This document shows positions 8,139-37,406 of a stretch of 64,000 nucleotides of DNA, piece by piece. Numbering within the stretch: position 1 is the first letter of the stretch; each line of letters begins with the position of its first letter. Below the pieces are notes generated by a model. That model saw nothing but the letters and a program-made list of their open reading frames with translations, ran no database searches and was not told the DNA's origin. The position numbers and the translations under genes were made by a program. Origin of the DNA: Candidatus Tenderia sp. (GTDB lineage Bacteria > Pseudomonadota > Gammaproteobacteria > Tenderiales > Tenderiaceae); contig JANOSY010000073.1 of the NCBI GenBank assembly GCA_031416075.1, positions 3,822-67,821 of the forward strand, in the 5' to 3' direction.

Positions 8139-8172
8139 ATATATCTCCTAACAATTCAATATTACTATTCTA

Positions 8173-9611: not shown

Positions 9612-9620
9612 ATTATCTAC

Positions 9621-10361: not shown

Positions 10362-10379
10362 TGAAAGCTCCTCGAGTTA

Positions 10380-11252
10380 TTAATCGGGTAATACATAGGC
10401 CATATCACCAAACGTATCTGAAGGTAAGCGCGGGCGAGCATTATGTGGCATCGGATAGAGCCCTTTTTCACCAAACCATTTCTGGTATATTCTTTCGTAA
10501 CTACCATCTTTAATCATGTCTTGTAATACAAAGCTCACCGCATCCCGCCATTTACTGTCATTCGGTGGAACACCTATGCCATAAAGACCTGGACTAAAGC
10601 CGGTGCCTACAACCTCAAACTCTGAGGCTGACTCTCCAGCCAATGCCGCTATAATAGGGCTGTCTTGACAAAACACATCTATCTTCCCTTGCTTTAATGC
10701 CAAAATCCCCTCGGCATTTTTTTGAAATGCGATTATCTTTGGTTCTAATTTGCTGTATTTCATGATCTCCTGAGGTGCCGCTGTATAAGCATTTGACCCC
10801 TGATTAACACCAATTTTTTTTCCTGCCAGATCGGATATTTTCTTAAATTCATTTTTTCTCGCATAAAATATCTTGGCCGTCCAAAGATAAGGTGGTTCAG
10901 CATAATCTATCTGCTCTTCACGGCCCCGTGTTTGTGATAGATTTGAAATTGTCATATCAATCTTTCGGTTAGATAGATAGGCTATCCGTGTCTTATTGTT
11001 GACGACAACAAGCTCTACTTTCACACCGAGTTGTTTTCCTATTTCGTTACCTAAATCGACATCGAAACCTGTCCAGTTTCCTTTTTCGTCAATAAAGTTC
11101 ATCGGAGGTGTATCATTACCCGTTCCTATGCGAATAGTGTTTGATTTTTTTACTTGATCAAAAATTGATTCTGCATTAACAATACTTGAGTTAATCACAC
11201 AAGAGAAAAGGCCTATAAATAAAGTGTTTTTAAATAGCTGGTTCAATTTCAT
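10380..11252 (-). CDS. Periplasmic polar amino-acid-binding protein (SBP_bac_3 family).
   Basis: Signal peptide MKLNQLFKNTLFIGLFSCVINSSIVNA. Typical two-lobed binding-protein motifs (GFDVDLGNEIGKQLG...). Its 5' end overlaps the stop of the upstream reductase gene. Confidence 0.8.
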   Translation of the reverse strand: MKLNQLFKNTLFIGLFSCVINSSIVNAESIFDQVKKSNTIRIGTGNDTPPMNFIDEKGNWTGFDVDLGNEIGKQLGVKVELVVVNNKTRIAYLSNRKIDMTISNLSQTRGREEQIDYAEPPYLWTAKIFYARKNEFKKISDLAGKKIGVNQGSNAYTAAPQEIMKYSKLEPKIIAFQKNAEGILALKQGKIDVFCQDSPIIAALAGESASEFEVVGTGFSPGLYGIGVPPNDSKWRDAVSFVLQDMIKDGSYERIYQKWFGEKGLYPMPHNARPRLPSDTFGDMAYVLPD

Positions 11253-12432: not shown

Positions 12433-12434
12433 CG

Positions 12435-12875
12435 TTACGCCACCTCTTCAGAAGGTAACAATTTCTTTTCAATTTTCTCTGGCTCTGGAATTCCGCCATA
12501 AAATGCAATTTTTCTATTAATAATTAATATAGGAAATATATTAAAACCCTGTGTCGATACAAGGGACTGTATCTGTTCAACCAGTCGATGCTCACTTGGT
12601 TCAAGATCACCACTCTTTATCTTTGACAGCGCTTTTCTGGCATCTGTAATTGAAATTGTCATCACTGAGATATTGGATCCGGAATTCTTTAAGGCAATAT
12701 CAACATTGTTTTTTAGCTTTTCATCACTCTGTGATGCTAATGGGGAGCAACATTTTGCAGAGACAATACCGATCCCGCCTTCATACATTACGGATCTTAA
12801 GTGAATCAGTGCATCCCCACTGTTGCTGTTCCCGCAAAAAAGTTTACATAGCGAATCAAACATATAACCCTCCAT
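12435..12875 (-). CDS. Thioredoxin-fold protein (redox-active disulfide protein-like).
   Basis: Paired cysteines (KCCSP). C-terminal ...FPILIINRKIAFYGGIPE resembles the cis-Pro/beta-strand/GG region of small thioredoxin_3-type proteins. Tightly packed between the permease and reductase with 1-2 nt gaps. Confidence 0.45.
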   Translation of the reverse strand: MEGYMFDSLCKLFCGNSNSGDALIHLRSVMYEGGIGIVSAKCCSPLASQSDEKLKNNVDIALKNSGSNISVMTISITDARKALSKIKSGDLEPSEHRLVEQIQSLVSTQGFNIFPILIINRKIAFYGGIPEPEKIEKKLLPSEEVA

Positions 12876-12876
12876 T

Positions 12877-13800
12877 TCAAAAATTAGGAATTGTCCACTG
12901 CGCGAGAAAACCCAATATCACAGCAGCTGTTACTACAGCGACAATATGAGCAACTATTAGTGGCCAACGAAACAGTCTTAAGAGCAGTATCATTTCAGGC
13001 AAGCTTGTTCCTGCACCAGAGATTAACAAGGCAACCAATGGTCCAGGATCCATCCCTTTCTCTATCAGTGCATAGCCGATAGGCACAATTGCCATAGGCG
13101 ATATGTATAGAGGAACAGCAATCAAGGCAACCAGTGGGATCAAGAAGTAGGGAGGAAAAGTATGATCCAGGTCTGTTAGTATGTTCTCTGGCATATAGCC
13201 GTGTATTAACCCGCCAATAATAATGCCTATCACTAGATAAGGCATGATCTGCCGTAATTCCATACGCGCCGCTCCCCATGAAAAAGAGAGCGCGGTACGA
13301 AATTTTGGGCGAGATACCTCTCCCGTGGAATCCCCCATATAACCTTCTGGAACAGCTACCGTGCCTAAAGGGCGCAGAAAACGTATCATGCCTGTGCGCT
13401 CTACAAGGATGCCGGCTAAAATGGAGAGAAGTGCTGCTGACAAAACAAATATCACAGCACTGCCAAACCCTGGACCACTGACCAATAATATAATGACACC
13501 TTCATTAATCACGGGGGATGAGATCAGAAAAGTAAAACATGAAGCCAAACCAATTTTTGACCTCAACATCCCACTTAGCACAGGTACCGTGGAACATGAA
13601 CAGAAAGGGGTAACGGCCCCACCAATGGCGGCTAATGTTGCGCCGTTCCAAGATGATGCGTTGGCAAGTTTTACCTCTATTGAGCGCCCTAACGAAAATT
13701 GCTGCGCCAGAAATATCAACATTGATATACCCAAAAACAGTATGACCAACATTAAGCCATCCAAAAGAATGAAATTTATAACGTCAACAACTTTATCCAT
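12877..13800 (-). CDS. DUF318/ArsP-type permease with the TPFCSCS thiol motif.
   Basis: Motif AVTPFCSCSTVPVLSG matches the conserved TPFcSCSxxP signature recalled for ArsP organoarsenical efflux permeases and DUF318 two-repeat permeases. About 8 TM segments. Confidence 0.65.
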   Translation of the reverse strand: MDKVVDVINFILLDGLMLVILFLGISMLIFLAQQFSLGRSIEVKLANASSWNGATLAAIGGAVTPFCSCSTVPVLSGMLRSKIGLASCFTFLISSPVINEGVIILLVSGPGFGSAVIFVLSAALLSILAGILVERTGMIRFLRPLGTVAVPEGYMGDSTGEVSRPKFRTALSFSWGAARMELRQIMPYLVIGIIIGGLIHGYMPENILTDLDHTFPPYFLIPLVALIAVPLYISPMAIVPIGYALIEKGMDPGPLVALLISGAGTSLPEMILLLRLFRWPLIVAHIVAVVTAAVILGFLAQWTIPNF

Positions 13801-13850
13801 AACAGCGCTCTTGAACAGGTATTGTTTTTTGTATGTTAAAAATTAGATTA

Positions 13851-14702
13851 TTAACAACACGATTCAGTGGTGGCACTGTTTTTTGTTTGCGCCAAACGTA
13901 AATCGGCAGATGGCATTCCACCATAACTGGACATGCTTGCTATCAGTGGTGTTGTGACTTTTACATCAAACCCAACTTCATCTAACGTTTCAATATAGGC
14001 ATCAAGCGCTTCTATACGAATATCTTCGATGTCTGTACGTATGCTATCCAAACCAATATCACCACAATTCACGCCAAGCTCACCACAAAGAGAGTGGCAG
14101 CTGGTGCTAATCATGCTGAAAAGTTCTGGCATGACACGATGGTGTGCCCAGACAAGGCTGTCATGAACACCATCATAGTCACTGGAGAGCATCTCTTTAA
14201 GCCGTCTGATACCGATGCCAAGATGTTCAATTTCATCGCTCAATATGGACTTTGCAAGGTCGCGTGTATCCGGGTCTGTATCGCGCTGAAGAATTTTATA
14301 CAACACAATGGCCATTGTCTCTGTCATCAGGTCTTGAATAATTAGGCATGCGGCCAGATCCTTTTTTGCGACTGCTGCAGAGAACTGTTTGCGTATATGC
14401 AACCACTGAGGTTCGACAATTCGTTGTTCAACAGGAAAGTCGAGTCTGCGCCCAAGGCTGGAGAGCATTTTGATATGTTTGGTCTCTTCAAAGGCCTGTT
14501 TTGCAGTCTCAATTTTTGAGTTGGTATCTTTCCATAAGGGCACCATCTCGGAATAGTTCTCTACAGCCATAATCTCGCCAGCTACTGCATTTGAGACTAT
14601 GTAGGCCATCAAGTCATAATATCTTTGGTCTTTACCGTGCCGCTGATTGCGCATCTCTTTGACTTCATTTCTATCCAATTCGTTAATATTCACACTATTC
14701 AT
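13851..14702 (-). CDS. Ferritin-like di-iron carboxylate protein (putative oxygenase/oxidase). First gene of the long minus-strand cluster.
   Basis: Two E...ExxH-type segments (AGEIMAVENYSEM... and DEIEHLGIG) spaced as in di-iron four-helix-bundle enzymes. No signal peptide. Confidence 0.5.
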   Translation of the reverse strand: MNSVNINELDRNEVKEMRNQRHGKDQRYYDLMAYIVSNAVAGEIMAVENYSEMVPLWKDTNSKIETAKQAFEETKHIKMLSSLGRRLDFPVEQRIVEPQWLHIRKQFSAAVAKKDLAACLIIQDLMTETMAIVLYKILQRDTDPDTRDLAKSILSDEIEHLGIGIRRLKEMLSSDYDGVHDSLVWAHHRVMPELFSMISTSCHSLCGELGVNCGDIGLDSIRTDIEDIRIEALDAYIETLDEVGFDVKVTTPLIASMSSYGGMPSADLRLAQTKNSATTESCC

Positions 14703-24500: not shown

Positions 24501-25037
24501 TTAGAACTGAAAAATCCCGTTCAGCGAGAACATGTCGATGTTGGTATCAGAGACATCCTGGTAACGATCCCAGCCGCCACGCACAGAGAAATTACTCCCC
24601 ATGATCACCTTCATACCCAAACCGATCGTCAGGCTGGTACCGCTATCACCTGTTGTCAGATTGTCATCCAGATCCCAGTTATAAAAGCCAAAACTACCAT
24701 AACCGTTCAAACCCTTACTGAGAAACAGCTCACCAATTGCGTTCAGCTGAACACCATCAACAGAGTAGTTGTTAATGCTGTTCTGTTTAAATCGACCAAG
24801 ATTGACGTAGGCCAACTCCATACCAAACCCTTCCGCATTGGCACCAACAAAAAACTTTGAGCTGCCTGCATTATCGTAACCACTACGATCAGTACTGGCA
24901 CTACCCAGGCCACCCCCCAGATAAACGGTTGGCTCGGCTGCGGCAACAGAAGCACCAACAGTAAATAGGGTTAATAGTAACGTGGACTTTAATGTTAGTT
25001 GTTTCACACACATCTCCTTCAGCACAATTTTAGCCAC
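24501..25037 (-). CDS. Small outer-membrane beta-barrel protein (OmpA-like N-terminal barrel / OmpW/opacity-type porin family).
   Basis: Signal peptide ...LLLTLFTVGASVAAA. Short alternating strands and C-terminal ...LNGIFQF. Confidence 0.6.
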   Translation of the reverse strand: MAKIVLKEMCVKQLTLKSTLLLTLFTVGASVAAAEPTVYLGGGLGSASTDRSGYDNAGSSKFFVGANAEGFGMELAYVNLGRFKQNSINNYSVDGVQLNAIGELFLSKGLNGYGSFGFYNWDLDDNLTTGDSGTSLTIGLGMKVIMGSNFSVRGGWDRYQDVSDTNIDMFSLNGIFQF

Positions 25038-25153: not shown

Positions 25154-26128
25154 CTACGAGGACACCTCAATAACACAGTTCCTACCACATTTTTTAGCCT
25201 TGTATAGCGCTTGATCGACACGTTCCATCAACAGAGAACCCACCTCACCATCTTCAGGAAAAGTAGCAACCCCCATGCTAACACTAACGCGCCCGAGTGG
25301 CTGTGCATCGCCTCCCTTGAAATCCGTAGACTCGATCAGCTTTCGTAAATTTTCCGCCACAATAATAGCGCCCTGCTTTGGGGTTTCCGGTAATAAAAGT
25401 ACAAACTCCTCACCTCCATAACGGCAAGCAAGATCTGCATGACGTAAACGTTCTTGCATCAACTGACTAAGATGTATCAACAGGGCATCTCCATCAGGAT
25501 GGCCGTGTGTATCATTGTATATTTTGAAGTTATCAACATCGATAAAAATCAATGAAAATTCTCGCTTATGGCGGAATGAACGAGCAACCTCCACTTCCAG
25601 GCTATCTTTAAAGTGACGATAGTTGTAAAGCCCCGTCAACCCATCACGAACTACCTTTTCACACAGCTCTACATTAAACTCAGAGAGTGCTTCGTTGTTA
25701 TTTTTAAGTTCCTGTAACAGCACCCGATTACCAACAAGCTCACTGCGTTTTTCCAACCCCCTCTTAACAACAGACGAGATATCCTCAAGTTCATTAAACG
25801 GTTTTACCAGATAATCAAAAGCTCCCTGCCGCAATGCAGAGACCGCCGATTCAAGTGAGGCATGGCTGGTAATAATAACGACCTGAACATCATCACTTAA
25901 CTCCCGGAGTCTATTCAGTAACTCAAGGCCGCTCATACCTTCCATCCGGACATCTGTAATAACCAAGGGAAAGGGTTCATTTATAAATAGAGCCATTGCC
26001 TCTTCGGCACTCTCTGCCGTGGTCACATCATAGTTATCATCCGTCAGAACCTCCGCAATCAGATTGCGTAGACTCATCTCATCATCCACCACTAAAATAC
26101 GGGACCCACAACTCATGATTAACCTCAA
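25154..26128 (-). CDS. Response regulator with a REC domain fused to a GGDEF diguanylate cyclase (PleD/WspR-like).
   Basis: REC: RILVVDDEMSLRNLIAEVL...ITDVRMEGMSG. GGDEF: GLTGLYNYRHF...RYGGEEFVLLLPET with an intact GGEEF active site. Confidence 0.85.
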   Translation of the reverse strand: MRLIMSCGSRILVVDDEMSLRNLIAEVLTDDNYDVTTAESAEEAMALFINEPFPLVITDVRMEGMSGLELLNRLRELSDDVQVVIITSHASLESAVSALRQGAFDYLVKPFNELEDISSVVKRGLEKRSELVGNRVLLQELKNNNEALSEFNVELCEKVVRDGLTGLYNYRHFKDSLEVEVARSFRHKREFSLIFIDVDNFKIYNDTHGHPDGDALLIHLSQLMQERLRHADLACRYGGEEFVLLLPETPKQGAIIVAENLRKLIESTDFKGGDAQPLGRVSVSMGVATFPEDGEVGSLLMERVDQALYKAKKCGRNCVIEVSS

Positions 26129-26219: not shown

Positions 26220-28061
26220 TTAAGCAGTAACACTCTCACCCAGATAAACAGACTGCTCATCATACGCTGGAAGAGTCACTATAAAAGCGGCCCCTTTACC
26301 GGGTTCACTCTCAATCTCCACCGTACCTTGATGATCTCTAATGATGCCAAACGTGACAGAAAGTCCCAACCCAGTCCCTTTGCCTGCTGCCTTAGTGGTG
26401 AAAAAAGGCTCAAACACACGTGCTTTCACCTCATCGGTCATGCCAGGCCCACTATCAGCGACACGGACTTCCACCCTACCTGAAACCAACAGACAACTGC
26501 TTATTCTCACTTCACCCGGCACACCATCCATAGCCTGTTGAGCGTTAATCATAAAGTTAATTAATGCCTGCTTTATCTGGTTACCATCGGCATAAATTTC
26601 CGGCACCTGATTATCCAGCACCTTCACTATTTTTACCTGATTAACACTTAACTGGTGATCGACTATGGCAATAGTCTCCTCAATAATCAGGTTAACATCG
26701 GTTGGTTCTTTCTTAACATCCTCTTTGCGAGCAAATTTCATCAAATTTTCGATAATATCTTTACAGCGTTTTGTCTCTTTTTCTATAACAACAAGGTTGT
26801 TATATACTGGGCCATCTTTTTCGACCTTACGCTTTGAAAGCTGTGCATAGCCAAGGATTCCCGCCAGTGGATTTTTTATTTCGTGGGCAATACCTGCCCC
26901 CAGCTGGCCAAAAGCGGCCATTTTTTCAGATTGAACAAGGGCAGATTGTGCCGATTCCAAAGCCACTTCACGACTATGCAACTCCGTCGTCATAGTATTA
27001 AATGAACTAGCCAGAGCACCTAATTCATCCCGTGACTCCACATCAAGTCGTATATCAAATCCACCTTGCCCAACTGCCTTGGCCGCTTCGGATAGTCGTT
27101 CAATCGGTCTGGTAATACGTTGTGCCCATATAATCCCTAACAACGCAGCAAGAATTAGCAGCCCTAACGCAACCCAAAGAAGGTTTCCCAGCAGTTCTCG
27201 TGCCGTCAGATATGCAGCACTTTTAGGCACTTGAACGCCCGCTATCAGCGAACCATGTTTGACACGGGCACGGGCATATCCGGCAACAACCGGCTCCCCT
27301 TTTACCACATACTCCACTATGGTGGCAGTACTCTGCATATCTGTCAGAACCTTCAGTTTTTCACGAGCCTCTAGTGGTATCCAATCTACTATAGTGTGTG
27401 CCACAATCAGATTCAGATCTTTATGTGCCAAAATGGAACCCTTATTATCCATTAAAAAAGTCTCAAAAACTGAAGATCGATTCACTACATTTAATAGCCT
27501 TTCCATGCGAACCATGGCAGAGACAATATGGGAATTACCCGTTTCAGGTGATTTTATTAATATGGCAATAGTTAATGTGGGTAGCGATTCATTTAGAGTC
27601 GAGTTAACTATGTAGCCCTCTTCATCAATAACCTTATCACCAGGCAAGGGGTTAGATTGACGATAATTGGATAATTCTTCTCTACTTAATCCAGCCTTTG
27701 TTAAAGAATCACTATCATAAATGGTTACCTGCTCTTTACCATTCTCATAAAGCGAAACTGAAACAAATTCCCCAATATCCTCAAATAGCCGCTGCAAAAG
27801 AATATTTTTCTCATTCTGTGGCAAACCAGAATCGATCATTATTCTTGAAAACAGACTCAACTTCTCTTCATACCCAAGATGCAAAGAGTAAGACTCTTCA
27901 GCTACATGCTGAGCAATAATAGAGGTCATATCATAAATGTAGGTTGTTTTATCAGTATGAAATAGGGCAGCCATCGTATACGTTATGATGCTCACAACCA
28001 GTGTAATCACTAGTAGCAATATACTCATCAATTTAAATCTGATGGGAAAACGTAAGTTCAC
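26220..28061 (-). CDS. Sensor histidine kinase with an N-terminal TM segment, a periplasmic Cache-like sensor, a second TM/HAMP region, HisKA and HATPase_c domains.
   Basis: H-box AGIAHEIKNPLAGILGYAQL and G-boxes DSGPGM / GKGTGLGLS. Two hydrophobic segments flank about 280 aa. Its start overlaps the FecR-like gene stop by 1 nt. Confidence 0.85.
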   Translation of the reverse strand: MNLRFPIRFKLMSILLLVITLVVSIITYTMAALFHTDKTTYIYDMTSIIAQHVAEESYSLHLGYEEKLSLFSRIMIDSGLPQNEKNILLQRLFEDIGEFVSVSLYENGKEQVTIYDSDSLTKAGLSREELSNYRQSNPLPGDKVIDEEGYIVNSTLNESLPTLTIAILIKSPETGNSHIVSAMVRMERLLNVVNRSSVFETFLMDNKGSILAHKDLNLIVAHTIVDWIPLEAREKLKVLTDMQSTATIVEYVVKGEPVVAGYARARVKHGSLIAGVQVPKSAAYLTARELLGNLLWVALGLLILAALLGIIWAQRITRPIERLSEAAKAVGQGGFDIRLDVESRDELGALASSFNTMTTELHSREVALESAQSALVQSEKMAAFGQLGAGIAHEIKNPLAGILGYAQLSKRKVEKDGPVYNNLVVIEKETKRCKDIIENLMKFARKEDVKKEPTDVNLIIEETIAIVDHQLSVNQVKIVKVLDNQVPEIYADGNQIKQALINFMINAQQAMDGVPGEVRISSCLLVSGRVEVRVADSGPGMTDEVKARVFEPFFTTKAAGKGTGLGLSVTFGIIRDHQGTVEIESEPGKGAAFIVTLPAYDEQSVYLGESVTA

Positions 28062-29353
28062 TAAAATTTTCCGTAAACCATTTTCGAATTATATGTTACG
28101 TTTCCGGCCATATCAACAGCTTCAACAACCAATATATTTATCCCCTGTTGCAATGTTAAAGCTTTAGAAAAAGTTCCATCACCTGCTATCGATATAGGTT
28201 CCCCTGTCACAAAAATATTGACACCAGGCTCACTTACACCCGTCAATATAAAATCAGAATTATTGATTATCTTATTAGGGAAATTAACCTTTAATAGTGG
28301 AGGAACTTTGTCCTGAATAACGCTTATTTGTCCAGTTTTACTATATGGTCCGTGCACCCATGAATGGGATGCATTAACTCGCCAGAAATAATCCCCTATG
28401 TATAAATTTCCCAAACTAAAATTGTTTGACATGACAACATCATCAACTATCAAAATATTAAAATCTTTATCTTTCGATATTTGGATACGATAATTATCTG
28501 ATTGTTTTACATTCTTCCATTTAAAATAAATTTTTGTGGGTAAGTCACGATAATAAAAAATGGATTTATGAGATGGGCTATCTAGTTTAACCTCTGGAGG
28601 TAACTCTTCTGAGTTCCGCATAGGAACACCGTCTTTCGCTGTTATGGACTGATTTTCAGTCACCACAACCCGCTGTCCCATAGAGGTGAATTCTGCTGTT
28701 CCAGAGTAGACAGTTAACGTTGATGATTTATCAGGATTCACTTTTATTGTAAATTCGGCCACTTCTCCCTCACCAGAAACGGCAGCCACTGCATTTGAGG
28801 TGGCCACTTCAACCCGCAATCCCTGTTTATTTGATCCGCTAATAGTGCCACTCAGCTCACCATCAACAACTATGATCTGAGAACGCCTCTCATTACGGAA
28901 CATACCCTTTTCCAGATGCTGAACGATAATCAGTGAATTTTCGCCAATAGAGAGGCGGTTACTTTTATCAAAAACAATATTTGCTCCTGATCCACGGAAA
29001 GTTTGTATTGCATCCTGATCAAACAGAGGAGTGCCTGAATCAACACTTTCCCATGCCATCCCACCAGCGGGTTTCCGTTTAACTGTCTGTTTTGTTCTAT
29101 CCAATACAGCCGTCAACCCCTTAATATCAAGCAGTCCTGCCTCATAGTCCCCCACACTGACAACCATATTGCGCTTTCCAACTTCATCTTTTTTATGGTC
29201 TTTGTTGAGAATTCCAATCAAACCACTACCAGTAGGAAAAACATTATTAATCAACATCATAATAATGCCAAATGCAATAAGGACCAAAATCAAGGCAATT
29301 AATACCTCGACTATACGAACAGATACAGACATTGAGTTTGTTTTTTCTGTCAC
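28061..29353 (-). CDS. Membrane-anchored FecR-domain protein with a C-terminal Ig-like region, a putative periplasmic signal-transducing or surface-associated partner.
   Basis: N-terminal TM VRIVEVLIALILVLIAFGIIMMLI, a central beta-rich region resembling FecR, and a C-terminal Ig-like stretch. Overlaps the histidine kinase start. Confidence 0.45.
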   Translation of the reverse strand: MTEKTNSMSVSVRIVEVLIALILVLIAFGIIMMLINNVFPTGSGLIGILNKDHKKDEVGKRNMVVSVGDYEAGLLDIKGLTAVLDRTKQTVKRKPAGGMAWESVDSGTPLFDQDAIQTFRGSGANIVFDKSNRLSIGENSLIIVQHLEKGMFRNERRSQIIVVDGELSGTISGSNKQGLRVEVATSNAVAAVSGEGEVAEFTIKVNPDKSSTLTVYSGTAEFTSMGQRVVVTENQSITAKDGVPMRNSEELPPEVKLDSPSHKSIFYYRDLPTKIYFKWKNVKQSDNYRIQISKDKDFNILIVDDVVMSNNFSLGNLYIGDYFWRVNASHSWVHGPYSKTGQISVIQDKVPPLLKVNFPNKIINNSDFILTGVSEPGVNIFVTGEPISIAGDGTFSKALTLQQGINILVVEAVDMAGNVTYNSKMVYGKF

Positions 29354-29641: not shown

Positions 29642-32600
29642 TTAATACTTACCCTGAAGTCTCAAGAACCAGCCATAAACAGAGTAATCATTATCAGATC
29701 GTTCATTGTCTGAAAAGTCAGTAAAGTTAAATCCAACGCCCAGACGCACGTGTCGGTTTGCACGCCACATCAATTCTGTCAGCCAGCCATCACGCTGATC
29801 TTTTGCTTCGCGTTGTGACAGACTACGATATTCCATTCCAAGATCCCAATCAGTAATGAACTGATAATTCAGACGATGAATAGAGAGCCAAGTATGACTA
29901 GTAAATGGAGATTGTTCATTGTCATTCTGACTTTTACGTTTGTAAGCAAGTTTATCTACCCATTCAATATTTGGCGTTAACTCGTAGGACCATTCAGAAG
30001 AAAGTATTTCTACCTGTGATTCCTGATCATCCTGAACATGCAGTGTTAATGGTCGTTTATCATAAATACCAGTATAACGGGCCAACATATTAAACCGGTC
30101 ACTTTCTACCGGTCGATACGCAAAACCGATACTATGTTCATTAAGTTCAGATTCTGTTACACCCAGATTTAGATCCTTGGTTTGGCTAATCAAATATTTA
30201 AAAATAAACGTATAATCTGGATTAATTTTTAGTTCCAATAGAGTATTACTAAGATATTGAATGCGTTCTTTATCACCACTCTCACGTCTGATCTCATTTT
30301 TTGTTGAGCCGCTTAATCCTGACACACCTTTGTAACTTAAGCGGGTTGATAGTGTATAACGTTCACTGTCATTCAAGGCACCATTGATAACACCCTTCTC
30401 AACTGCCAGCTTCAGACGAAATCCTTGCTGTATATCCCAAAAGCGGTCTATTCCTACCATTGAGACCTGTCGATCACCAGCAGTGGAATTCTCAATCTGA
30501 TACTCACTATATATCCGGCTATTTTTAGCTAACTGATTCTCTCCACCTATAACTGTACTCAATGAGGATTGACCCAGTGTATTTTGGCGCATACGCTCAT
30601 CCAGATATATTCGCCCACCATCAAACAACCATTGCACTCCCACTTTTGCCGCTGTGCCTTGAGTTCCATTTGCGAGACGGCCAATCAACTCAGTTGATTG
30701 GCCTATTTTATAATCGGCACCGATAGTTGTCTGATCATCTTCATCGCCGGATAGTGTCTGCTGCTGTTCAATCTGTGTATCTAAACTATCGTTCACCTTA
30801 TATCGAAGTTGACCGCTTATATAATCGCCACTTGATACACTATCACCCACTGAGTTGACTGCATCGCGGTTTTGATACTCAGTACTGACTCCCCAGTCTT
30901 TAGCGTCATAACGCCACTGCAGAGAGAGTTTTTTTGTCTCTACAATAGAATTGGGATTTATTGTCGTTATTGAACTCTCCTCCATACTGCTGCTTGCCAA
31001 TAGTTTGCTCTGATTACTCAAGGTATACAGCATCGTTATCCCGATCTTACGTGTTCCTTTTTCAAGGAAATTACCACTAGATAGAAAACCTTCACCCAGT
31101 TGTTTAGCATAGCCATTTATCAACATGCGACCTGGATCATTCAGAAGCTTACCTATATCCAACTCCATGGCTGCTTTCCAAGCTTGGCCTTCCAAGGTTC
31201 CCGCAGGTGTCAGGTCATCAAAGCTTAAACCACCGTCTTGACTGTAATACGTATGGCTGGCAATGCCTCTGCTTTGCGCCAGCTCCGTCACTATTCTCAA
31301 ACCACGTCCAATATCTATTTCAGCATCTATTCCTGTAAGTTGATATTCACCATTATTGATCTCATCATTAATCTGTGTGATGCCCACTGCAACATTTTTA
31401 CCCAATGCCTTACTAGCCCGTACGCCGTAGGATTTTTTGTCAAAGCTGCTTAGATTTGTCTCATAGTCAACCGTTAATATTGTTGGATTTCCTGACAACA
31501 AAGAGCTATCAAATAGAGAGTGGCTATCCACCACGCTGGCAATAGGGTCGCTGGTGATCAACCGTCCTTGATCATAATAGATCCGATAATCAATATTTCT
31601 TTGCAAAGTTTTACGGCTCAATATCAAACCGGTATCACGATCTCTTACCACAATAGATACCTGCTCACTTCCTTCAATGATATCGCCGTGACTAAGGTAA
31701 TAGAGTGACCCACCTGTTCCATTTAATTCATCATGAATGGGGACCTGTTTTACTTCTGCCGCAAATATAATTGCCTGAGCATTAGGCCGCTCATTTATGT
31801 TTTTGGCTATTGAGGTATAAATGCCACGTATGCCATAAAGTGTACGCTGATAACTTGCTAGCTCTGTTTTATCAAAACCAATCGCATAGTTACCCACAAA
31901 AACACTCATTTCATCACTTGTTAATGCAAGATAGAACTTTCCTTGACTATTAATTTCATCTACCAAAGTGCTTGAATCACCATAAACAGGATAATATTTA
32001 TCAGGATCAAGATTGGTGAAAAGCCTTGAACTCTCCTGCTTGTCAATATTATTCATAAATGAATCATTATCACCGGTATCAAAAGATGAAGTGATCAGGT
32101 ATTTACCTTTAATCACGCCCTTTAAATAGTAAGCCACCCTCCCCTCACTATAAAATGAATTACTCTTTTGCAATCCGGATGCCTCAAGATAGCCACTACC
32201 TTTTAACTGCCCAAATTTCCCATCTGCAAAGGCCATAAAAAACATGCGATCATCGCTAATTTCAATGTTCCGCTCAATCACCCCGCTATAACCTTCCGGA
32301 TCAGTTACCTCAACCCGGACGCTATTTTCACCTTTAGGTAAAACCAGGTTTGCTACAAAGTGACCGTTAGGATCAACAGTAATACGTTCACCATTAATGG
32401 TTATCTTGTTAAGCGGATTGGTCACGCCCGAGACAGGCAGTTCAGGGACGGTTCTTAATACCCCCATCTGTGGTAACTTGACGGTTAGGCTTGGTATTGG
32501 GTCCACCAACAACATTAACTTACCATCAACATTTCGATCACTTAATGTGGCTTGTAAATCGGCAATGCGGCTATAACCTTGCGCATTGGTGACTATAACA

Positions 32601-35539
32601 GAAACGCTGTTCTTTCCTGAATGTAACATCAATGAATGATTGAAAACTCCATCATCGGTTATTGATACGCCGATACCATCTATTTCTAAACTATTTCCAG
32701 GGTCGGTACGACCACGTAATTCGTACGGCATTAAGAACCCATGTTGACTTTCACTATTAGTTCCCACTATTCCAACGTCATTATAGATTTCTGGATATGG
32801 AAGTGTCTCTTTACCCTTCATTGTATAAAATACTAATGATGGAATATTTACAATCGCTTTGAATTCACTACCACTACTGCTGACCATCTCCATAGTTAAC
32901 TGAGAGGTCTCTTCATAAGAGTAACTACGCTGAAAGCGTCCAAGGCCATCTAACGGCAACAACTCTCCATTTATTTTTACCTGTGGCATCGTTCTATATT
33001 GGTCATAAAGCTTAACATCAGACTCCGTGCTAAAATCACCCTTTATCTCAACACGACGGTTAATCTCCCTACCCATATCAGTATTATTACTAACAATTGG
33101 GCTGCTCTCACCAAACCAACGGATAATCAGCTGTTCACGAGGTACGCCTTCTATATCAACCAGGAAATGGGCGGCCGCTTCTGCACGCCGTTGTGACAGA
33201 ATCATGTTAACGTTATCATCCCCTCTATTATCACTATGCCCTTCTACTAACACCTGTTCACCTGGGAACTGTTTTAATACTTTGGCCGCACCAGATAATA
33301 TTTTCTTTGCATCGTCTGAAAGCTCTGTTGATCCTGTCTTAAATGCACCGCCAGACATATTGACAGATAATACTTCTGTACGATTAACTCCAAACAGCTG
33401 GCGAGATGTTTTAATACTCACTCCATCTGAATAGTTAATTAGAAGTTGATACTGGAATATTTTTCCGCCTTTAACAGTTTTTCCAGAATCATCTCGGCCA
33501 TTCCATTCTAATATACTGGGAAGAGGACCTCGCCCAGACAATGTATATACATGTTTTCCATCGGAATCATTAATGACAAAACTCCACGATTCAACTCTAT
33601 CATTATCATCAATTTGCACATTAAAAATGGCCGGCGTCTCAAGTTCTCCGCCCTTTATTTTGATTGTATTATCCATATTCAAACTATTCAAATTAACATT
33701 TGAATTAGAAAGATGTTTAACCGTACCATTGATGACTGCAAGCATAACTTCAGCATAGCCTTGTATCTGGATTGGCTTTTGGCTGCTATCACCCTCCATG
33801 GTGACTCCTTTTACTAAATCTCGGCCAATGCTATTTTTCTCAAATATATAACGTACACCAAAGTTCGCTTTTGCTAACAAACCTGGTGTTACCGAGACAA
33901 TTAGGGCCTCTTCCGTAGTAACTACAGCATTATCCGCCAAATGGGGTAAATTTATTTTTAGTAGTCGATGTCCAGGTGCTACGGCGGAAAAGTGGTAACG
34001 ACCATATTCATCAGTAAGAACATAGCTGCCATTATCAAGCACCACCATAGCACCACCAATACCAATCTCTCCCTTTGATTGATGGCCATCGCCATCATGA
34101 TCTCCAAATACTTTTCCAATGATAGTTCCAAGATCAAATATTGGGTCAATCACCACTTCAACTTTTGATTCAACCCTATTTGATATCAGGCAGCGATTAC
34201 ACACATCAATCGCATACGCGTTATTAATGTAATCACCTGGCTTTGCACCAGAACCTATAATAAGTTGATAACTCAACATCTGATAGCCAGATTCCCCTGC
34301 ATCAGCTTGACCATTACCATTTTTATCAGACAGTGCATCAATGTTACCAATTAAGAAATTAAGCTGATGTATCCCTGATGGATCTTGAGTTTGAATACCA
34401 TTTATTCGGCTGCTGCCGGGTAAATATTTAAAGTTTGGTGGGATACGGTCTAACAAAGAGACCTGCTCAATAGTTTTATCAGTACTATTTTTTATCTCCA
34501 CATAATAAGTCACCAGGTCTCCAATCATCGCCTTTTCTTTGTTTGCACGTTTAGTCAAACGTAATATTTCACCTTGGCTAAAATATATTAATGGACGTGA
34601 TAACAGATCAAATCCATCGTTTATATTAGTAGCTGATACAGTAGAAATACCTGGCTTATTTGAGTATATTTTTCCTATAGCGCTGCCATTGGTCAGAGTT
34701 ATACCTATAGGCTGCTCAATATTGTCAAAAACACCTCTATTAGTTGATAAAGCTATCTTTTTATCAGTGACTGGAGAACCATTTGAATCTAAAAGGGTGA
34801 CAGTTACTTGGCTGTTACTAATGCCGTCTGCAATGACAATATCGGGTACTACGACAATTGTAGAGAGCAAAGGATCCGCACTGGTGACAACAGCAACCTG
34901 ACGGCTATTATTATCCGTCACATCACCATCAGCACTTCCATCAACGCTTTCCATTGAGCTAATATCTGGTGTATTAACATCATCTACGTAACTAAAAAAT
35001 AATCCAACACCTGCCTCAAGCGGTGTATCAGCCTGTATTTCAGCACTAATTCTAGACTTGTCTACCATTACTTTGATGCCAAGATCAATAGTCAGCTTAG
35101 TTCCATCTGATATTGCACAGAATGTATTGGCAGAAACTGCGGGGCATGTTTGTGACCATAGATCTCCAGCTATAGAGAGCCAATTCAACGAGATATTTTT
35201 ATATCCTGATGGTGAAACTATAGTAATTCTATTTATTCCAGTATCATTAACTCCTATTGAAGGCAATAAATCATAGATAAAAACTTTTGATTTTATATTA
35301 GCAGGAACACTATTTGGATATATTTCAGCGTGAACGATAGTCGCAGCATTATTGCCACCAAGAACATCAAATGAAACCGTTGCTTGACTCAGGTCTAGCG
35401 GGTAACCATTAAATGTTCCTGTTACACCACTTTGAACAACTGCTGCCTGTGAAACACAGATAACAAGATTTGCCCATAGGAAAAATAACAGAGTTCCCAT
35501 GAGTATCTTTGACTTACTAAGCATGTGCCTTTTTAACAC
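29642..35539 (-). CDS. Giant (1,965 aa) secreted cell-envelope protein. It has a signal peptide, a Big_1 Ig-like domain, a DUF11 (conserved repeat) domain, a CarboxypepD_reg/Cna-B-like domain, an internal OmpA-type peptidoglycan-binding domain and a C-terminal beta-rich region of about 1,100 aa (putative outer-membrane barrel).
   Basis: Signal peptide MLKRHMLSKSKILMGTLLFFLWANLVICVSQA. Big_1-like ADGISNSQVTVTLLDSNGSPVTDKKIALSTNRG. DUF11 signature LTKRANKEKAMIGDLVTYYVEIKNSTDKTIEQVSLLDRIPPNFKY. Cna-B-like GTIIGKVFGDHDGDGHQSKGEIGIGGAMVVLDNGSYVLTDEYGRYHF. OmpA motif ...VLVEGHSDNRGDDNVNMILSQRRAEAAAHFLV...EINRRVEI. C-terminal ...YSVYGWFLRLQGKY with a terminal aromatic. Markedly AT-rich. Confidence 0.7.
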   Translation of the reverse strand: MLKRHMLSKSKILMGTLLFFLWANLVICVSQAAVVQSGVTGTFNGYPLDLSQATVSFDVLGGNNAATIVHAEIYPNSVPANIKSKVFIYDLLPSIGVNDTGINRITIVSPSGYKNISLNWLSIAGDLWSQTCPAVSANTFCAISDGTKLTIDLGIKVMVDKSRISAEIQADTPLEAGVGLFFSYVDDVNTPDISSMESVDGSADGDVTDNNSRQVAVVTSADPLLSTIVVVPDIVIADGISNSQVTVTLLDSNGSPVTDKKIALSTNRGVFDNIEQPIGITLTNGSAIGKIYSNKPGISTVSATNINDGFDLLSRPLIYFSQGEILRLTKRANKEKAMIGDLVTYYVEIKNSTDKTIEQVSLLDRIPPNFKYLPGSSRINGIQTQDPSGIHQLNFLIGNIDALSDKNGNGQADAGESGYQMLSYQLIIGSGAKPGDYINNAYAIDVCNRCLISNRVESKVEVVIDPIFDLGTIIGKVFGDHDGDGHQSKGEIGIGGAMVVLDNGSYVLTDEYGRYHFSAVAPGHRLLKINLPHLADNAVVTTEEALIVSVTPGLLAKANFGVRYIFEKNSIGRDLVKGVTMEGDSSQKPIQIQGYAEVMLAVINGTVKHLSNSNVNLNSLNMDNTIKIKGGELETPAIFNVQIDDNDRVESWSFVINDSDGKHVYTLSGRGPLPSILEWNGRDDSGKTVKGGKIFQYQLLINYSDGVSIKTSRQLFGVNRTEVLSVNMSGGAFKTGSTELSDDAKKILSGAAKVLKQFPGEQVLVEGHSDNRGDDNVNMILSQRRAEAAAHFLVDIEGVPREQLIIRWFGESSPIVSNNTDMGREINRRVEIKGDFSTESDVKLYDQYRTMPQVKINGELLPLDGLGRFQRSYSYEETSQLTMEMVSSSGSEFKAIVNIPSLVFYTMKGKETLPYPEIYNDVGIVGTNSESQHGFLMPYELRGRTDPGNSLEIDGIGVSITDDGVFNHSLMLHSGKNSVSVIVTNAQGYSRIADLQATLSDRNVDGKLMLLVDPIPSLTVKLPQMGVLRTVPELPVSGVTNPLNKITINGERITVDPNGHFVANLVLPKGENSVRVEVTDPEGYSGVIERNIEISDDRMFFMAFADGKFGQLKGSGYLEASGLQKSNSFYSEGRVAYYLKGVIKGKYLITSSFDTGDNDSFMNNIDKQESSRLFTNLDPDKYYPVYGDSSTLVDEINSQGKFYLALTSDEMSVFVGNYAIGFDKTELASYQRTLYGIRGIYTSIAKNINERPNAQAIIFAAEVKQVPIHDELNGTGGSLYYLSHGDIIEGSEQVSIVVRDRDTGLILSRKTLQRNIDYRIYYDQGRLITSDPIASVVDSHSLFDSSLLSGNPTILTVDYETNLSSFDKKSYGVRASKALGKNVAVGITQINDEINNGEYQLTGIDAEIDIGRGLRIVTELAQSRGIASHTYYSQDGGLSFDDLTPAGTLEGQAWKAAMELDIGKLLNDPGRMLINGYAKQLGEGFLSSGNFLEKGTRKIGITMLYTLSNQSKLLASSSMEESSITTINPNSIVETKKLSLQWRYDAKDWGVSTEYQNRDAVNSVGDSVSSGDYISGQLRYKVNDSLDTQIEQQQTLSGDEDDQTTIGADYKIGQSTELIGRLANGTQGTAAKVGVQWLFDGGRIYLDERMRQNTLGQSSLSTVIGGENQLAKNSRIYSEYQIENSTAGDRQVSMVGIDRFWDIQQGFRLKLAVEKGVINGALNDSERYTLSTRLSYKGVSGLSGSTKNEIRRESGDKERIQYLSNTLLELKINPDYTFIFKYLISQTKDLNLGVTESELNEHSIGFAYRPVESDRFNMLARYTGIYDKRPLTLHVQDDQESQVEILSSEWSYELTPNIEWVDKLAYKRKSQNDNEQSPFTSHTWLSIHRLNYQFITDWDLGMEYRSLSQREAKDQRDGWLTELMWRANRHVRLGVGFNFTDFSDNERSDNDYSVYGWFLRLQGKY

Positions 35540-35703: not shown

Positions 35704-36315
35704 TCAATTAATACGCGCACGAAACATGAACGAAACAACTTTACCAGCAGGAATATTAACCACTCCATTGGTCTGCCCTGTATGCGCCCCCATGGTAATT
35801 AAATCAGGTGAGACCGCAACATTAGCAGAGGCCACATCCGCATTAATGGCATCACTCAAAGAAATTCCGCTACCACTTGCATTGGTATCGTTAAATATTG
35901 TGGCTAAAGATGCAGCGCTATTGGTAGTGTTGTTATTCCATGTTAAAGAGCCTGCTTGATAGGTAAAGTCCGTATCATTGAGTTGATCCTCAAGCCTGAC
36001 ATCAGATGATTGCGTACTAGTTGAGTTATCTATATAAATAATAAATTTTACGATACTGCCCTTTACAACGGAGCTGCCACTAACAATTTCCGTGCCCGTG
36101 TTATCATCCAGAAATGCTTTTTTTACTACGGCTAACGTAGCACTGGTAATTGTTAGCGTTGCAGAGTCTGTAATGTAATCGGTGTCTGACAATGTAGGGT
36201 CAGCGCCTAAATTAGCCCGCCCGATATTAGTCGCAGACCACGCTAATGAAGATGCTGAAAGCAAGTACAAAGAGAATATAGAGCAGACTAACTGTGTTTT
36301 TAAATTTGGTCTCAT
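35704..36315 (-). CDS. Small secreted DUF11-like protein, paralog 1. Putative surface/fibre subunit.
   Basis: Signal peptide MRPNLKTQLVCSIFSLYLLSASSLAWSA. Ser/Thr/Asn-rich. DUF11-like core VVKKAFLDDNTGTEIVSGSSVVKGSIVKFIIYIDNSTSTQSSDVRLEDQLNDTDFT. C-terminal FMFRARIN. Paralogous to the 36432..37067 product. Confidence 0.5.
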   Translation of the reverse strand: MRPNLKTQLVCSIFSLYLLSASSLAWSATNIGRANLGADPTLSDTDYITDSATLTITSATLAVVKKAFLDDNTGTEIVSGSSVVKGSIVKFIIYIDNSTSTQSSDVRLEDQLNDTDFTYQAGSLTWNNNTTNSAASLATIFNDTNASGSGISLSDAINADVASANVAVSPDLITMGAHTGQTNGVVNIPAGKVVSFMFRARIN

Positions 36316-36431: not shown

Positions 36432-37067
36432 TTAATTCATTGTGACTCTGAAACGAACAGCAACTCGACGCGGGTCAACTACAGGGTCAGCTTGTGTTGA
36501 CTTCACTATATTAAGCACAGCATTACCACCACCAAGCCCCACGGTCACCTGATTGGCTGTTGAGACATTCCAGTTAAGTTGATCGGCATCAACAGCCGCC
36601 GTCATAGCATTCCATGTCAAACCATTCCATGTTCCCCCACCTGTTCCAGCAGTTGTCCACGCAGTGTCGTTGCCTGCTGTCATCTCTATTCCTGGTGATG
36701 CAACTGTGTTAAGAATTTCGAAACTGGTGGGTACAACAGTAAAGGCACCCGTATCGATAGCATCTATAAAACGCACATCACTAATATCCACAGATGAGCT
36801 GTTATCCACATAGAGTACAAAATAGAACTGCATCCCTGAAGGAATGCTGGCACTGGCACCTAGATTGTTACCATTAAGATTGCGCGCCTCTTTGGTAATT
36901 CCAAGCGCTGCTGCATTAATTGTGATAACCCCTGAATTAGTTAAACTAACCCCGCCCCCTCCTGGATAAGTGGCCTGATTGGTTGCGGCAAAGGCCGATG
37001 TCCCAAGAAGCATGGGTAAACTTGCTATGCCACTTAACCATAGTTTTCTACTTCCAACCCCGCTCAT
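36432..37067 (-). CDS. Small secreted DUF11-like protein, paralog 2. Putative surface/fibre subunit.
   Basis: Signal peptide ...LPMLLGTSAFAA. Core ITKEARNLNGNNLGASASIPSGMQFYFVLYVDNSSSVDISDVRFIDAIDTGAFT follows the same pattern as paralog 1 and as the DUF11 segment of the giant protein. C-terminal RFRVTMN. Confidence 0.5.
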   Translation of the reverse strand: MSGVGSRKLWLSGIASLPMLLGTSAFAATNQATYPGGGGVSLTNSGVITINAAALGITKEARNLNGNNLGASASIPSGMQFYFVLYVDNSSSVDISDVRFIDAIDTGAFTVVPTSFEILNTVASPGIEMTAGNDTAWTTAGTGGGTWNGLTWNAMTAAVDADQLNWNVSTANQVTVGLGGGNAVLNIVKSTQADPVVDPRRVAVRFRVTMN

Positions 37068-37379: not shown

Positions 37380-37406
37380 CTCCAGACCAATAGGATTGGT
37401 CTGGAG
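37380..37406 (-). terminator. Rho-independent terminator of the dsbA-like gene.
   Basis: Perfect 12-bp inverted repeat CTCCAGACCAAT-agg-ATTGGTCTGGAG immediately after the stop codon. On the transcribed strand it is followed by TTTATAAT. Confidence 0.6.

Follow-up and report, generated by a model that had tools for sequence, protein, structure and literature searches.

A giant protein of Candidatus Tenderia with an internal OmpA-like domain is the fused form of a widespread adhesin-plus-barrel system

We analyzed a stretch of 64,000 nucleotides from Candidatus Tenderia sp. (assembly GCA_031416075.1, contig JANOSY010000073.1, positions 3,822 to 67,821), referred to here as the window, whose minus strand carries a giant open reading frame (ORF) with an OmpA-like domain in the middle of the encoded chain. 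The giant protein is the fused, single-gene form of an uncharacterised and widespread two-part system consisting of an adhesin and a barrel, with at least 4,400 clusters at 50% identity. Among its relatives the order variable fibrillar stalk, CLIPPER-SdrD_B module, OmpA-like domain, Ig-like domains and barrel is kept, and the gene boundary lies after the OmpA-like domain, before it, or nowhere. Since the order is conserved and only the gene boundaries shift, gene fusion or fission accounts for the internal position of the OmpA-like domain in the giant protein. Both the domain and the unusual architecture around it are real, and the architecture is conserved. A search of the open literature, with subscription journals outside its coverage, found no description of the barrel family or of the gene pair.

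The layout of the giant ORF is given below in window positions, followed by amino-acid residues (aa) of the ORF and the basis of each assignment.

29642–35539, minus strand: giant ORF, 1,965 codons from GTG; an identical protein (P0001) is present in an independent assembly
34874–35443, minus strand: repeatable beta-sandwich domain with a conserved Cys pair, aa 33–222 (AlphaFold2, AF2; Foldseek)
34625–34864, minus strand: Big_1 / Invasin_D3 Ig-like domain, aa 226–305 (E 2e-11 and 9e-8)
33830–34564, minus strand: CLIPPER(DUF11)-SdrD_B module, aa 326–570 (Pfam, NCBIfam, homologue comparison)
33383–33829, minus strand: linker region with a weak FlgD_ig-like Ig domain, aa 571–719 (Pfam)
33041–33382, minus strand: OmpA-like peptidoglycan-binding domain, aa 720–833 (Pfam core 733–828 at 33056–33343)
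32270–33022, minus strand: two to three Ig-like domains, aa 840–1090 (two Glucodextran_B matches)
29645–32269, minus strand: predicted C-terminal outer-membrane beta-barrel domain, aa 1091–1965, ending GWFLRLQGKY (AF2, Foldseek, couplings)
31490–31717, minus strand: conserved barrel insertion of about 75 residues, aa 1275–1350, beginning GTGGSLYYLSH (family conservation, AF2)

The true start is likely the ATG at 35524 (M6), which yields a typical Sec signal peptide, MLSKSKILMGTLLFFLWANLVICVSQA. The giant protein thus has the layout of a fibrillar adhesin, namely a signal peptide and a beta-sandwich stalk that includes a CLIPPER domain, followed by the OmpA-like domain.

An OmpA-like domain within the chain

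The first-pass annotation of this DNA had recognised an OmpA-type domain from the motif VLVEGHSDNRGDD...EINRRVEI, which corresponds to residues 763–832 of the giant ORF (window 33044–33253). A Pfam scan bore this out: the OmpA family (PF00691) matched residues 733–828 with an E-value of 3.2e-21 and 76 bits, against a cut-off of 27.2, and covered model positions 2–98 of 98. In NCBIfam, residues 719–834 gave partial matches to YiaD, PA1041, YfiB, Pal, MotB and TssL. When residues 700–850 were compared with PDB sequences by phmmer, 34 solved OmpA-like domains were found at E ≤ 1e-8, including 5wtp (8.5e-17), YiaD, OprF, YfiB, Omp38 and Pal. The GHSD (D770) and SQRRA (R785) segments of the query align with the GHTD and LSxxRA segments of the solved domains, and both D770 and R785 are invariant in 30 family members. 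The Asp of GHTD and the Arg of LSxxRA (D271 and R286 in A. baumannii OmpA) are the pair that binds the diaminopimelate of the peptide stem in peptidoglycan. Judged from these profile and residue matches, the mid-chain domain is a bona fide OmpA-like domain of the peptidoglycan-binding type in an internal position.

The location given earlier, 32335–32700, which had been flagged as approximate, does not hold. This interval encodes residues 947–1069, a Glucodextran_B-type Ig-like region, and the OmpA-like domain lies about 700 nucleotides away. When 32335–32700 was read on both strands no OmpA motif was found, and the plus strand was full of stops. The flanks had been described correctly. Upstream of the OmpA-like domain, Pfam matches Big_1/Invasin_D3 at residues 223–305, SdrD_B at 476–532 and a weak FlgD_ig-like domain at 638–693. 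A single CLIPPER/DUF11 domain is found at 326–385, where the Pfam score is 24.3 bits against a cut-off of 24.6 and TIGR01451 scores 39 bits against a cut-off of 24. Downstream of the OmpA-like domain follow 1,137 residues, the final 875 of which form a beta-rich domain.

The C-terminal domain belongs to a large barrel family

Residues 1091–1965 matched no family in Pfam or NCBIfam except Porin_4 at E 0.6, and phmmer with the barrel domain found nothing among PDB sequences at E ≤ 1. A search with the same residues returned 369 relatives, and a barrel profile was built from 60 of them. This profile retrieved 7,511 cluster representatives at E ≤ 1e-3, 4,420 at E ≤ 1e-10 and 2,646 at E ≤ 1e-30, the clusters being defined at 50% identity. 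In the matches listed the barrel lies at or near the C-terminus, and host proteins reach 7,402 aa. RefSeq labels some of the barrel homologues 'hypothetical protein', and several 'TonB-dependent receptor' or 'outer membrane protein transport protein' (L091–L093; plasmid hits H4, H5, H7, H10, H12, H16 and H19). The TonB-dependent-receptor and transport labels are probably misannotations: the barrel of the window, the only one scanned in this respect, has no plug or TonB receptor domain.

With the family alignment, AF2 modeled the barrel domain with a predicted local distance difference test score (pLDDT) of 84 and a predicted template modeling score (pTM) of 0.78. The model shows about 42 antiparallel strands in a nearly unbroken series with short turns and almost no helix; it also contains one long loop and the insertion of about 75 residues, which is built from short strands. 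In a Foldseek comparison with the PDB the top matches were all large outer-membrane barrels, namely LptD, BtuB, MtrB, SlpA, Cir and FimD; we read this as the same class at another size, the class of fold being clear. The giant protein ends RLQGKY, and its closer homologues, like the barrel proteins of cultured strains, keep a Y or F at this last position, in line with the aromatic C-terminal beta-signal of outer-membrane barrels. Some homologues score above threshold on OMP_b-brl (P0175, 42 bits), and weak similarities to Porin_4, BBP2 and KdgM occur in the barrel or its homologues. The possibility raised in the first-pass annotation, that this region might consist of soluble repeats rather than a membrane barrel, is thus countered by the Foldseek matches, the terminal aromatic residue and the OMP_b-brl scores. 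Taken from model and homologues, the last 875 residues are a large domain of the outer-membrane-barrel type, belonging to a big family that has no curated model.

The strand arrangement was further studied with our own mean-field direct-coupling analysis, which used 324 sequences (effective number of sequences 293) and a reduced alphabet. Thirteen of the top 25 couplings join neighboring predicted strands, where about one is expected, and 28 of the 41 neighboring strand pairs exceed the 95th percentile of non-neighbors. One of the top 25 links the first and last strands (domain residues 15 and 869; 0.03 expected). Thus the coupling analysis supports a hairpin meander, and closure only weakly. 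For comparison, the largest solved single-chain barrel is SprA, the type 9 secretion translocon, with 36 strands (bioRxiv 10.64898/2026.03.07.710327), and barrels of 38 strands are predicted in Deinococcus (PMC9388160).

Among the most conserved motifs of the domain are GTGGSLYYL, at the start of the 75-aa insertion, and DPDxxYPVYG (aa ~1177–1186), in a loop modeled with low confidence by AF2. Both lie outside the transmembrane strands of the model. The two motifs may point to a plug, to a gate or to a site where a partner binds, with the 75-aa insertion as the candidate plug or gate.

Fused and split forms of the system

For a survey of the family, 80 metagenome loci were fetched with the barrel profile, ORFs were called, and these were searched with segments of the giant protein and with an iterated OmpA profile. 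The survey set comprised 86 non-redundant loci; they are interrelated, and the counts are not those of independent events. A fused gene with the OmpA-like domain and the same domain order as in the window was found at 27 of the 86 loci. Another 29 carry a fused gene that lacks the OmpA-like domain, and there the CLIPPER-SdrD_B module ends about 20 residues before the block of Ig-like domains and barrel. At 18 loci the system is split, with the adhesin gene first and the barrel gene after it. The remaining 12 were unclassified: 11 had no adhesin module detected beside the barrel, and one was a 5'-truncated OmpA-plus-barrel ORF. Full-length relatives at 36–65% identity show the same domain order throughout, and distant relatives share two blocks only, residues ~326–570 (CLIPPER-SdrD_B) and ~1100–1965. 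Two homologues have a further domain after the barrel, an OmpA-like domain in P0044 and a TPR domain in P0136.

A large adhesin gene adjoins each stalk-less barrel protein that was looked up. At L010, a 2,126-aa protein with GEVED, SdrD_B, CshA_repeat and OmpA domains lies directly upstream of the barrel; at L005, the upstream protein has more than 1,605 aa and carries Calx-beta, cadherin, CshA, SdrD_B and CLIPPER domains; at L008, a 1,216-aa protein with beta-helix, CLIPPER and SdrD_B domains lies downstream. In BLAST comparisons, residues 325–563 of the giant protein match the C-terminal end of the split adhesins. The OmpA-like domain is found, in one or two copies, at the C-terminus of the adhesin in some split loci (L010, L055, L056, L062, L073, L074, L077–L079, L083, L087 and L005), and at the N-terminus of the barrel protein in others (L081, L086 and L066). 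The split barrel proteins have their own signal peptides, and the Ig-like region of about 200 residues before the barrel is conserved in them as well, where it appears as extra N-terminal positions of the barrel profile.

The pairing of adhesin and barrel is also present in isolates of Alpha-, Beta- and Gammaproteobacteria. In Croceibacterium atlanticum, WYH_RS16105 (annotated 'OmpA family protein', 2,037 aa, with two C-terminal OmpA-like domains) is followed by WYH_RS16110, a barrel protein of 1,232 aa. In Eleftheria terrae the gene boundary lies before the OmpA-like domain: N7L95_RS29305, an SdrD_B protein of 2,647 aa, is followed by N7L95_RS29300 ('OmpA family protein', 1,405 aa), which combines OmpA and barrel. 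Sinorhizobium meliloti T073 carries the pair CDO28_RS34120 and CDO28_RS34125, and adhesin-barrel pairs are likewise present in the RefSeq/GenBank gene calls of Leucothrix arctica and Kangiella spongicola. The internal OmpA-like domain reported in the first-pass annotation is therefore not a one-off; its internal position is real, but it belongs to the fused version of a large family whose split forms keep the domain at the end of a polypeptide.

A distant variant (L095) was observed on plasmid p4 of Acinetobacter haemolyticus (CP085288, 191166–203531). It comprises four small DUF11/NEW3 proteins and a 2,008-aa DUF11-barrel protein, and after the barrel gene come one for a separate OmpA protein of 360 aa and one for another DUF11 protein, of 978 aa. 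Entries of 1,300–1,500 aa that consist of OmpA and barrel were considered as a natural stalk-less form and rejected, as they have no signal peptides and look like truncated gene calls; the reading frame of P0125, for example, is open upstream to the contig end.

Split versions raise the question of whether the giant ORF arose by a misassembly or a frameshift that joined two genes, and L023 indeed looks like a fused type broken in two. However, an independent Logan contig encodes the identical protein, and a full-length copy at 94% identity is present in a GenBank metagenome-assembled genome, the sole locus from the genome-contig search. Moreover, 27 fused loci have the same order, and no signal peptide or start context is found at the junction. 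We regard an artefact as barely credible.

The barrel could, on another reading, be an unrelated channel, a porin or transporter that is merely fused or adjacent to adhesin genes, with the adhesin exported otherwise or not at all. Such a channel would fit the TonB-dependent-receptor and outer-membrane transport labels that RefSeq gives to some homologues, as well as the weak Porin_4, BBP2 and KdgM similarities. Against it, a CLIPPER-SdrD_B adhesin is encoded in the same ORF at 56 of the 86 loci and by the adjacent upstream gene at 18, the pairing recurs across isolates, and neither a TonB plug nor any other transporter domain was matched. The adhesins carry a Sec signal peptide and end in an OmpA-like domain, and they have no type 1, type 5 or type 9 secretion signal. 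An unrelated channel is therefore highly improbable in our judgement.

A pilin-like stalk and the CLIPPER-SdrD_B module

The N-terminal domains of the giant protein are all of pilin or adhesin type. The beta-sandwich unit at aa 33–222 gave no Pfam match, and it is repeated from one to nine or more times in homologues. Modeled by AF2 from an alignment of 20 repeat sequences, it reached a pLDDT of 90, and Foldseek related it to the Gram-positive pilins GBS80, BcpA, EbpB and SpaD, to the CNA collagen-binding domain, to CARDB and to the CLIPPER structure 9IFR, with a TM-score of about 0.45. Through the number of repeats, stalk length among relatives ranges from about 1,770 to more than 4,200 aa.

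The CLIPPER-SdrD_B module is the only part of the adhesin that always accompanies the barrel, be it fused or split. Within it (aa 326–470, window 34130–34564), K330, D364 and N439 are conserved at 84–86% in 50 homologues, and a C447-N-R-C450 motif is also kept. The solved CLIPPER domain 9IFR has an isopeptide triad, K715/D748/N806, and a CTTC disulfide (PMC12617251), and the triad and CxxC of the giant protein are laid out in the same way. K330, D364 and N439 are thus a probable candidate isopeptide triad that would give the module mechanical strength. The CLIPPER domain gave no match among PDB sequences, so conservation is the sole footing of this assignment.

Neighboring genes and a possible signaling branch

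The genes next to the giant ORF that may bear on its function are the following.

28061–29353, minus strand: FecR-like protein of 430 aa, with a membrane anchor at its N-terminus, ending in an Ig domain (PF04773, 28 bits, cut-off 24)
26220–28061, minus strand: sensor histidine kinase with a weak Cache-like N-terminal match, HAMP, HisKA and HATPase_c (Pfam/NCBIfam)
25154–26128, minus strand: response regulator with a GGDEF diguanylate cyclase domain, GGEEF and RxxD (Pfam/NCBIfam)
35704–36315, minus strand: small secreted CLIPPER-like protein, 203 aa (profile comparison)
36432–37067, minus strand: second small secreted CLIPPER-like protein, 211 aa, paralogous to the one of 203 aa (profile comparison)

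The genes for the FecR-like protein, the kinase and the REC-GGDEF response regulator lie directly downstream of the giant ORF on the same strand, and this synteny extends down to relatives at 39% identity. A FecR-like gene follows 23 of 26 OmpA-bearing fused genes, as against 1 of 14 OmpA-less ones (Fisher p 6e-7, phylogeny ignored). The OmpA-less fused genes sit among housekeeping genes, without a dedicated partner. The C-terminal Glucodextran_B Ig domain of the FecR-like protein (aa 341–417 of the product) is homologous to the Ig domains at aa 939–1083 of the giant protein, a cross-match that is seen in many related loci and that may mark a contact surface between the two proteins. That the FecR-like/kinase/cyclase trio senses the adhesin is a well-motivated hypothesis, for which synteny provides the only link.

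The two small proteins encoded upstream (203 and 211 aa) gave no Pfam match. By hhalign they are CLIPPER-like (probability 95.6%, E 1e-8), each consisting of a single CLIPPER-like domain. Kinship with the N-terminal repeat of the giant protein was considered and rejected, the hhalign probability being 0.2%. Such proteins are encoded at 5 of 11 OmpA-bearing fused loci where the upstream region is visible, and at 1 of 17 OmpA-less fused loci.

On a further reading, the barrel with its periplasmic Ig-like domains would work like an usher, exporting and polymerizing these small CLIPPER-like proteins into a fibre of which the stalk is the base or adaptor. The genes of the two secreted paralogues are immediately upstream and turn up again in related loci, FimD is among the Foldseek matches of the barrel, the conserved barrel insertion is comparable to the plug of an usher, and the distant Acinetobacter haemolyticus cluster also has small DUF11/NEW3 genes upstream. 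However, there is no match to a PapD chaperone or to the usher family, the small proteins are missing from the split systems and from most of the fused loci counted above, the OmpA-less fused genes stand partnerless among housekeeping genes, and the small proteins are not homologous to the N-terminal repeat. Usher-like fibre assembly therefore appears very unlikely.

Some further features of the surroundings were noted. A perfect 12-bp stem-loop without a following T-run lies on the minus strand at 37380–37406, between a DsbA-like gene and the nearer small CLIPPER-like gene; it separates the adhesin cluster from the DsbA and DsbB genes further upstream and may be a terminator or another regulatory hairpin. 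In a promoter and terminator scan, promoter-like sites were fewer than in shuffled sequence, and the hairpin was the one useful result. The end of the cluster (24501–25037, minus strand) encodes a small OmpA_membrane/OMP_b-brl protein with 8 strands; it is not conserved in related loci, and its membership in the system is doubtful. The G+C content is 0.38–0.46 between 24400 and 40600, as compared with 0.52–0.61 in the flanks, and this block, which holds the adhesin cluster together with LEA_2, GTPase, AHSA1, DsbB and DsbA genes, looks horizontally acquired. No tRNA was found in the window. Among the products of a second block of low G+C content (2682–14702, minus strand) are a DUF1302 protein of the outer membrane, a LolA-like/DUF1329 protein and two ABC systems, a MacB/FtsX-type exporter and an amino-acid transporter. 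The block further contains genes for a fatty acyl reductase (NAD_binding_4) and, two genes on, an aldehyde-decarbonylase-like di-iron protein (PF11266), a combination that recalls cyanobacterial alkane synthesis.

Proposed topology and mechanism

The C-terminus of an outer-membrane barrel faces the periplasm. Since an OmpA-like or a TPR domain can follow the barrel (P0044 and P0136), and an OmpA-like domain also stands just before it, on either polypeptide, both ends of the barrel are best placed in the periplasm, along with the OmpA-like and Ig-like domains. The stalk, by comparison, would be placed outside the cell, because its domains are of pilin and adhesin type, its length is variable, and adhesive heads are found in the split partners, which bear GEVED, CshA_repeat, cadherin and beta-helix domains. 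A stalk of up to thousands of residues with a variable number of repeats fits poorly into the periplasm. With the stalk outside and the OmpA-like domain in the periplasm, the chain would pass the outer membrane once, between the two. As the CLIPPER-SdrD_B module is the only adhesin segment that is always found with the barrel, the module, or the linker after it, is the proposed occupant of the lumen.

We propose the following scheme. After Sec export, BAM, the machinery for beta-barrel assembly, would insert the barrel into the outer membrane. The cassette of OmpA-like and two Ig-like domains would stay in the periplasm and grip the peptidoglycan, the OmpA-like domain acting both as a stopper and as a wall anchor. 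The chain would cross the lumen of its own barrel once, probably at or just after the CLIPPER-SdrD_B module, and the pilin-like N-terminal stalk would be displayed on the surface, such that the cell wall rather than the membrane would take up any pull on the adhesin. Where the fused form bears the OmpA-like domain, the periplasmic cassette would contact the FecR-like protein that shares its Ig domain, and the FecR-like protein would modulate the kinase and the response-regulator diguanylate cyclase, coupling the state of the adhesin to cyclic di-GMP (c-di-GMP). This scheme as a whole, a fused adhesin-plus-giant-barrel system with a surface stalk, a periplasmic OmpA anchor and a signaling branch, is in our estimate slightly more probable than its contrary. 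The first-pass annotation had pictured a protein tethered to the wall at its centre with large parts on either side. The OmpA-like domain is indeed internal, but the arrangement is better read with the C-terminal part as an outer-membrane barrel directly above the wall, the OmpA-like and Ig-like domains in the periplasm, and the N-terminal 700 residues most likely outside.

It is conceivable that nothing is displayed on the surface and that the protein is a tether or scaffold connecting the outer membrane to peptidoglycan, as SlpA and OmpM do. Its N-terminal 1,060 residues would then all be periplasmic, and its Ig-like domains would offer the FecR-like protein and the kinase a platform for sensing. 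A wall-binding domain before a large barrel is established in SlpA (PMC9388160), which is also among the better Foldseek matches. Both barrel ends appear to be periplasmic, no obvious membrane-crossing linker is marked in the sequence, and the FecR-like protein and the kinase face the periplasm. The stalk itself speaks for display. Its domains are of the types found in surface pilins and adhesins; homologues have up to several thousand residues of such repeats, and the split partners carry GEVED, CshA, cadherin and beta-helix domains; and the repeat number varies among close relatives, which is ill-suited to a space of fixed width. In addition, the 29 of 86 loci with a fused gene lacking the OmpA-like domain imply that tethering cannot be the core function. 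A tether without surface display is, on this evidence, unlikely.

Several points weigh against the scheme with a surface stalk and a closed giant barrel. The Foldseek probability for the barrel is 1.0, but the TM-score is at most 0.35 on either normalisation, and no template validates the geometry. In the coupling analysis the ladder score of the first and last strands ranks 77 of 819, and a single residue pair favors closure. The hydrophobic alternation of the strands, at 1.71, is weakly above the 1.40 +/- 0.17 of shuffled sequences (z ~1.9), and many strands are polar on both faces. That some 42 strands close into one barrel is a prediction, and the route of the chain through the membrane is a proposal. 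Surface exposure of the stalk has domain type and length variation as its whole basis. The small CLIPPER-like proteins have no place in the scheme and were seen at only 5 of 11 loci, and the relatedness of the 86 surveyed loci to one another applies to all counts taken from them.

Comparison with known secretion and anchoring systems

The closest described proteins are fibrillar adhesins with an OmpA anchor. Two surveys treat OmpA-like domains as the 'anchor' of fibrillar adhesins of Pseudomonadota and name no partner barrel or outer-membrane route (PMC10952558, PMC12617251); B9T28_05395 of Acinetobacter silvestris, whose CLIPPER domain is PDB 9IFR, is an OmpA-anchored fibrillar adhesin of this kind (PMC12617251, PMC10952558). 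Alike are the Sec signal, the stalk of CLIPPER, SdrD_B, CshA-type and cadherin-like domains, and the OmpA-like domain, and the split adhesins (L010; WYH_RS16105 of C. atlanticum) share the architecture of the OmpA-anchored fibrillar adhesins. Unlike in the published proteins, the OmpA-like domain of the giant protein precedes Ig-like domains and an 875-aa barrel, and in the split forms the barrel is the next gene. A search with the C-terminal module of a split adhesin did not have B9T28_05395 among its matches.

With respect to type V secretion, the first-pass annotation had held that the architecture fits neither classical nor inverse autotransporters, and we came to the same view, as no autotransporter or intimin barrel family was matched and the domain order differs. 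A classical autotransporter (type Va) is one chain with an N-terminal passenger and a C-terminal barrel of 12 strands, the chain presumably running through the lumen, where an alpha-helical linker lies in the pore. The giant protein is likewise a single chain with an N-terminal passenger and a C-terminal barrel, and the OmpA-less fused genes stand alone as autotransporters do. However, PF03797 (Autotransporter) gave no Pfam match in the giant protein at E ≤ 1, the barrel, of about 875 aa, is predicted to have some 42 strands, the passenger is a row of Ig-like beads rather than a beta-helix, and the OmpA-Ig region stands between passenger and barrel. Intimin and invasin (type Ve) have a periplasmic LysM domain, a barrel and a passenger of Big_1/Invasin-type Ig domains. 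A peptidoglycan binder, a barrel, and Big_1 and Invasin_D3 domains are common to both, but here the passenger is N-terminal, the barrel C-terminal and the binder OmpA-like instead of LysM; neither LysM nor an intimin-type barrel had a Pfam match in the giant protein. The existence of fused and two-gene versions mirrors types Va and Vb, the latter being two-partner secretion (TPS). In the giant protein and in the split adhesins examined, the TPS domain, POTRA and the Omp85 barrel are absent, and, in contrast to type Vb, the conserved module lies at the C-terminal end of the adhesin, and the adhesin gene precedes the barrel gene. As to the chaperone-usher pathway, neither the usher family (PF00577) nor a PapD-like chaperone was matched in the giant protein or its neighbors, FimD being a structural match of low TM-score only.

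SlpA consists of an SLH domain, a coiled coil and a 30-strand barrel and connects the outer membrane to peptidoglycan (PMC9388160). SlpA and OmpM resemble the giant protein in having a wall-binding domain N-terminal to a very large barrel, with the connector in the periplasm. SlpA differs in its SLH domain and coiled coil, in being trimeric, and in having no adhesin stalk before the wall-binding domain. SlpA and OmpM thus indicate that a large barrel can function with a wall-binding domain placed N-terminal to it.

In envelope signaling, an outer-membrane component can signal to an inner-membrane partner, as is the case for RcsF through OmpA/C/F, for FecA-FecR and for YfiB-YfiR-YfiN. The FecR-domain protein, the OmpA-like domain resembling YfiB, and the diguanylate cyclase output as in YfiBNR are similar features of the giant protein and its neighbors. 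In contrast to FecA-FecR-FecI and YfiBNR, the output is a two-component kinase with a REC-GGDEF protein. No match to a TonB-dependent transducer (plug, TonB_dep_Rec, STN) was found in the giant protein, and the neighbors include no extracytoplasmic function (ECF) sigma factor and no YfiR or YfiN homologue.

SprA shares with the giant protein a very large single-chain barrel that is tied to the export or display of big surface proteins. However, there is no sequence match and no good structural match to SprA, the barrel described here, of about 875 aa, occurs in many phyla besides Pseudomonadota, and the type 9 secretion system is an energised, multi-protein system.

Implications

The giant protein is of a known kind in that it would be a barrel-anchored surface adhesin with a wall anchor, and there is a substantial chance that it stands for a new class of display system; the membrane crossing of the adhesin would be the well-motivated hypothesis within it. 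More specifically, the barrel domain might define a new and widespread class of outer-membrane translocator and anchor, with about 42 strands, the CLIPPER-SdrD_B module of the adhesin in its lumen, an OmpA wall lock, fused and two-gene versions, and one branch in which the FecR-like protein, kinase and cyclase form a contact or force sensor. This we put forward tentatively, holding it somewhat less probable than its contrary.

The published surveys leave unexplained how a wall-anchored, Sec-exported adhesin reaches the surface, and the conserved coupling of adhesin and barrel offers a concrete and testable answer. Carriers that can be cultured are at hand, namely Sinorhizobium meliloti T073, Croceibacterium atlanticum, Kangiella spongicola, Leucothrix arctica and Eleftheria terrae. 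If the scheme is true, the RefSeq labels 'hypothetical protein' and 'TonB-dependent receptor' on the barrels would be corrected, and the size limit of single-chain barrels would rise. The branch represented in the window would physically link an adhesin to c-di-GMP signaling. A new barrel-based display route would stand beside type V secretion, as a previously unrecognised pathway for the secretion and anchoring of Gram-negative adhesins.

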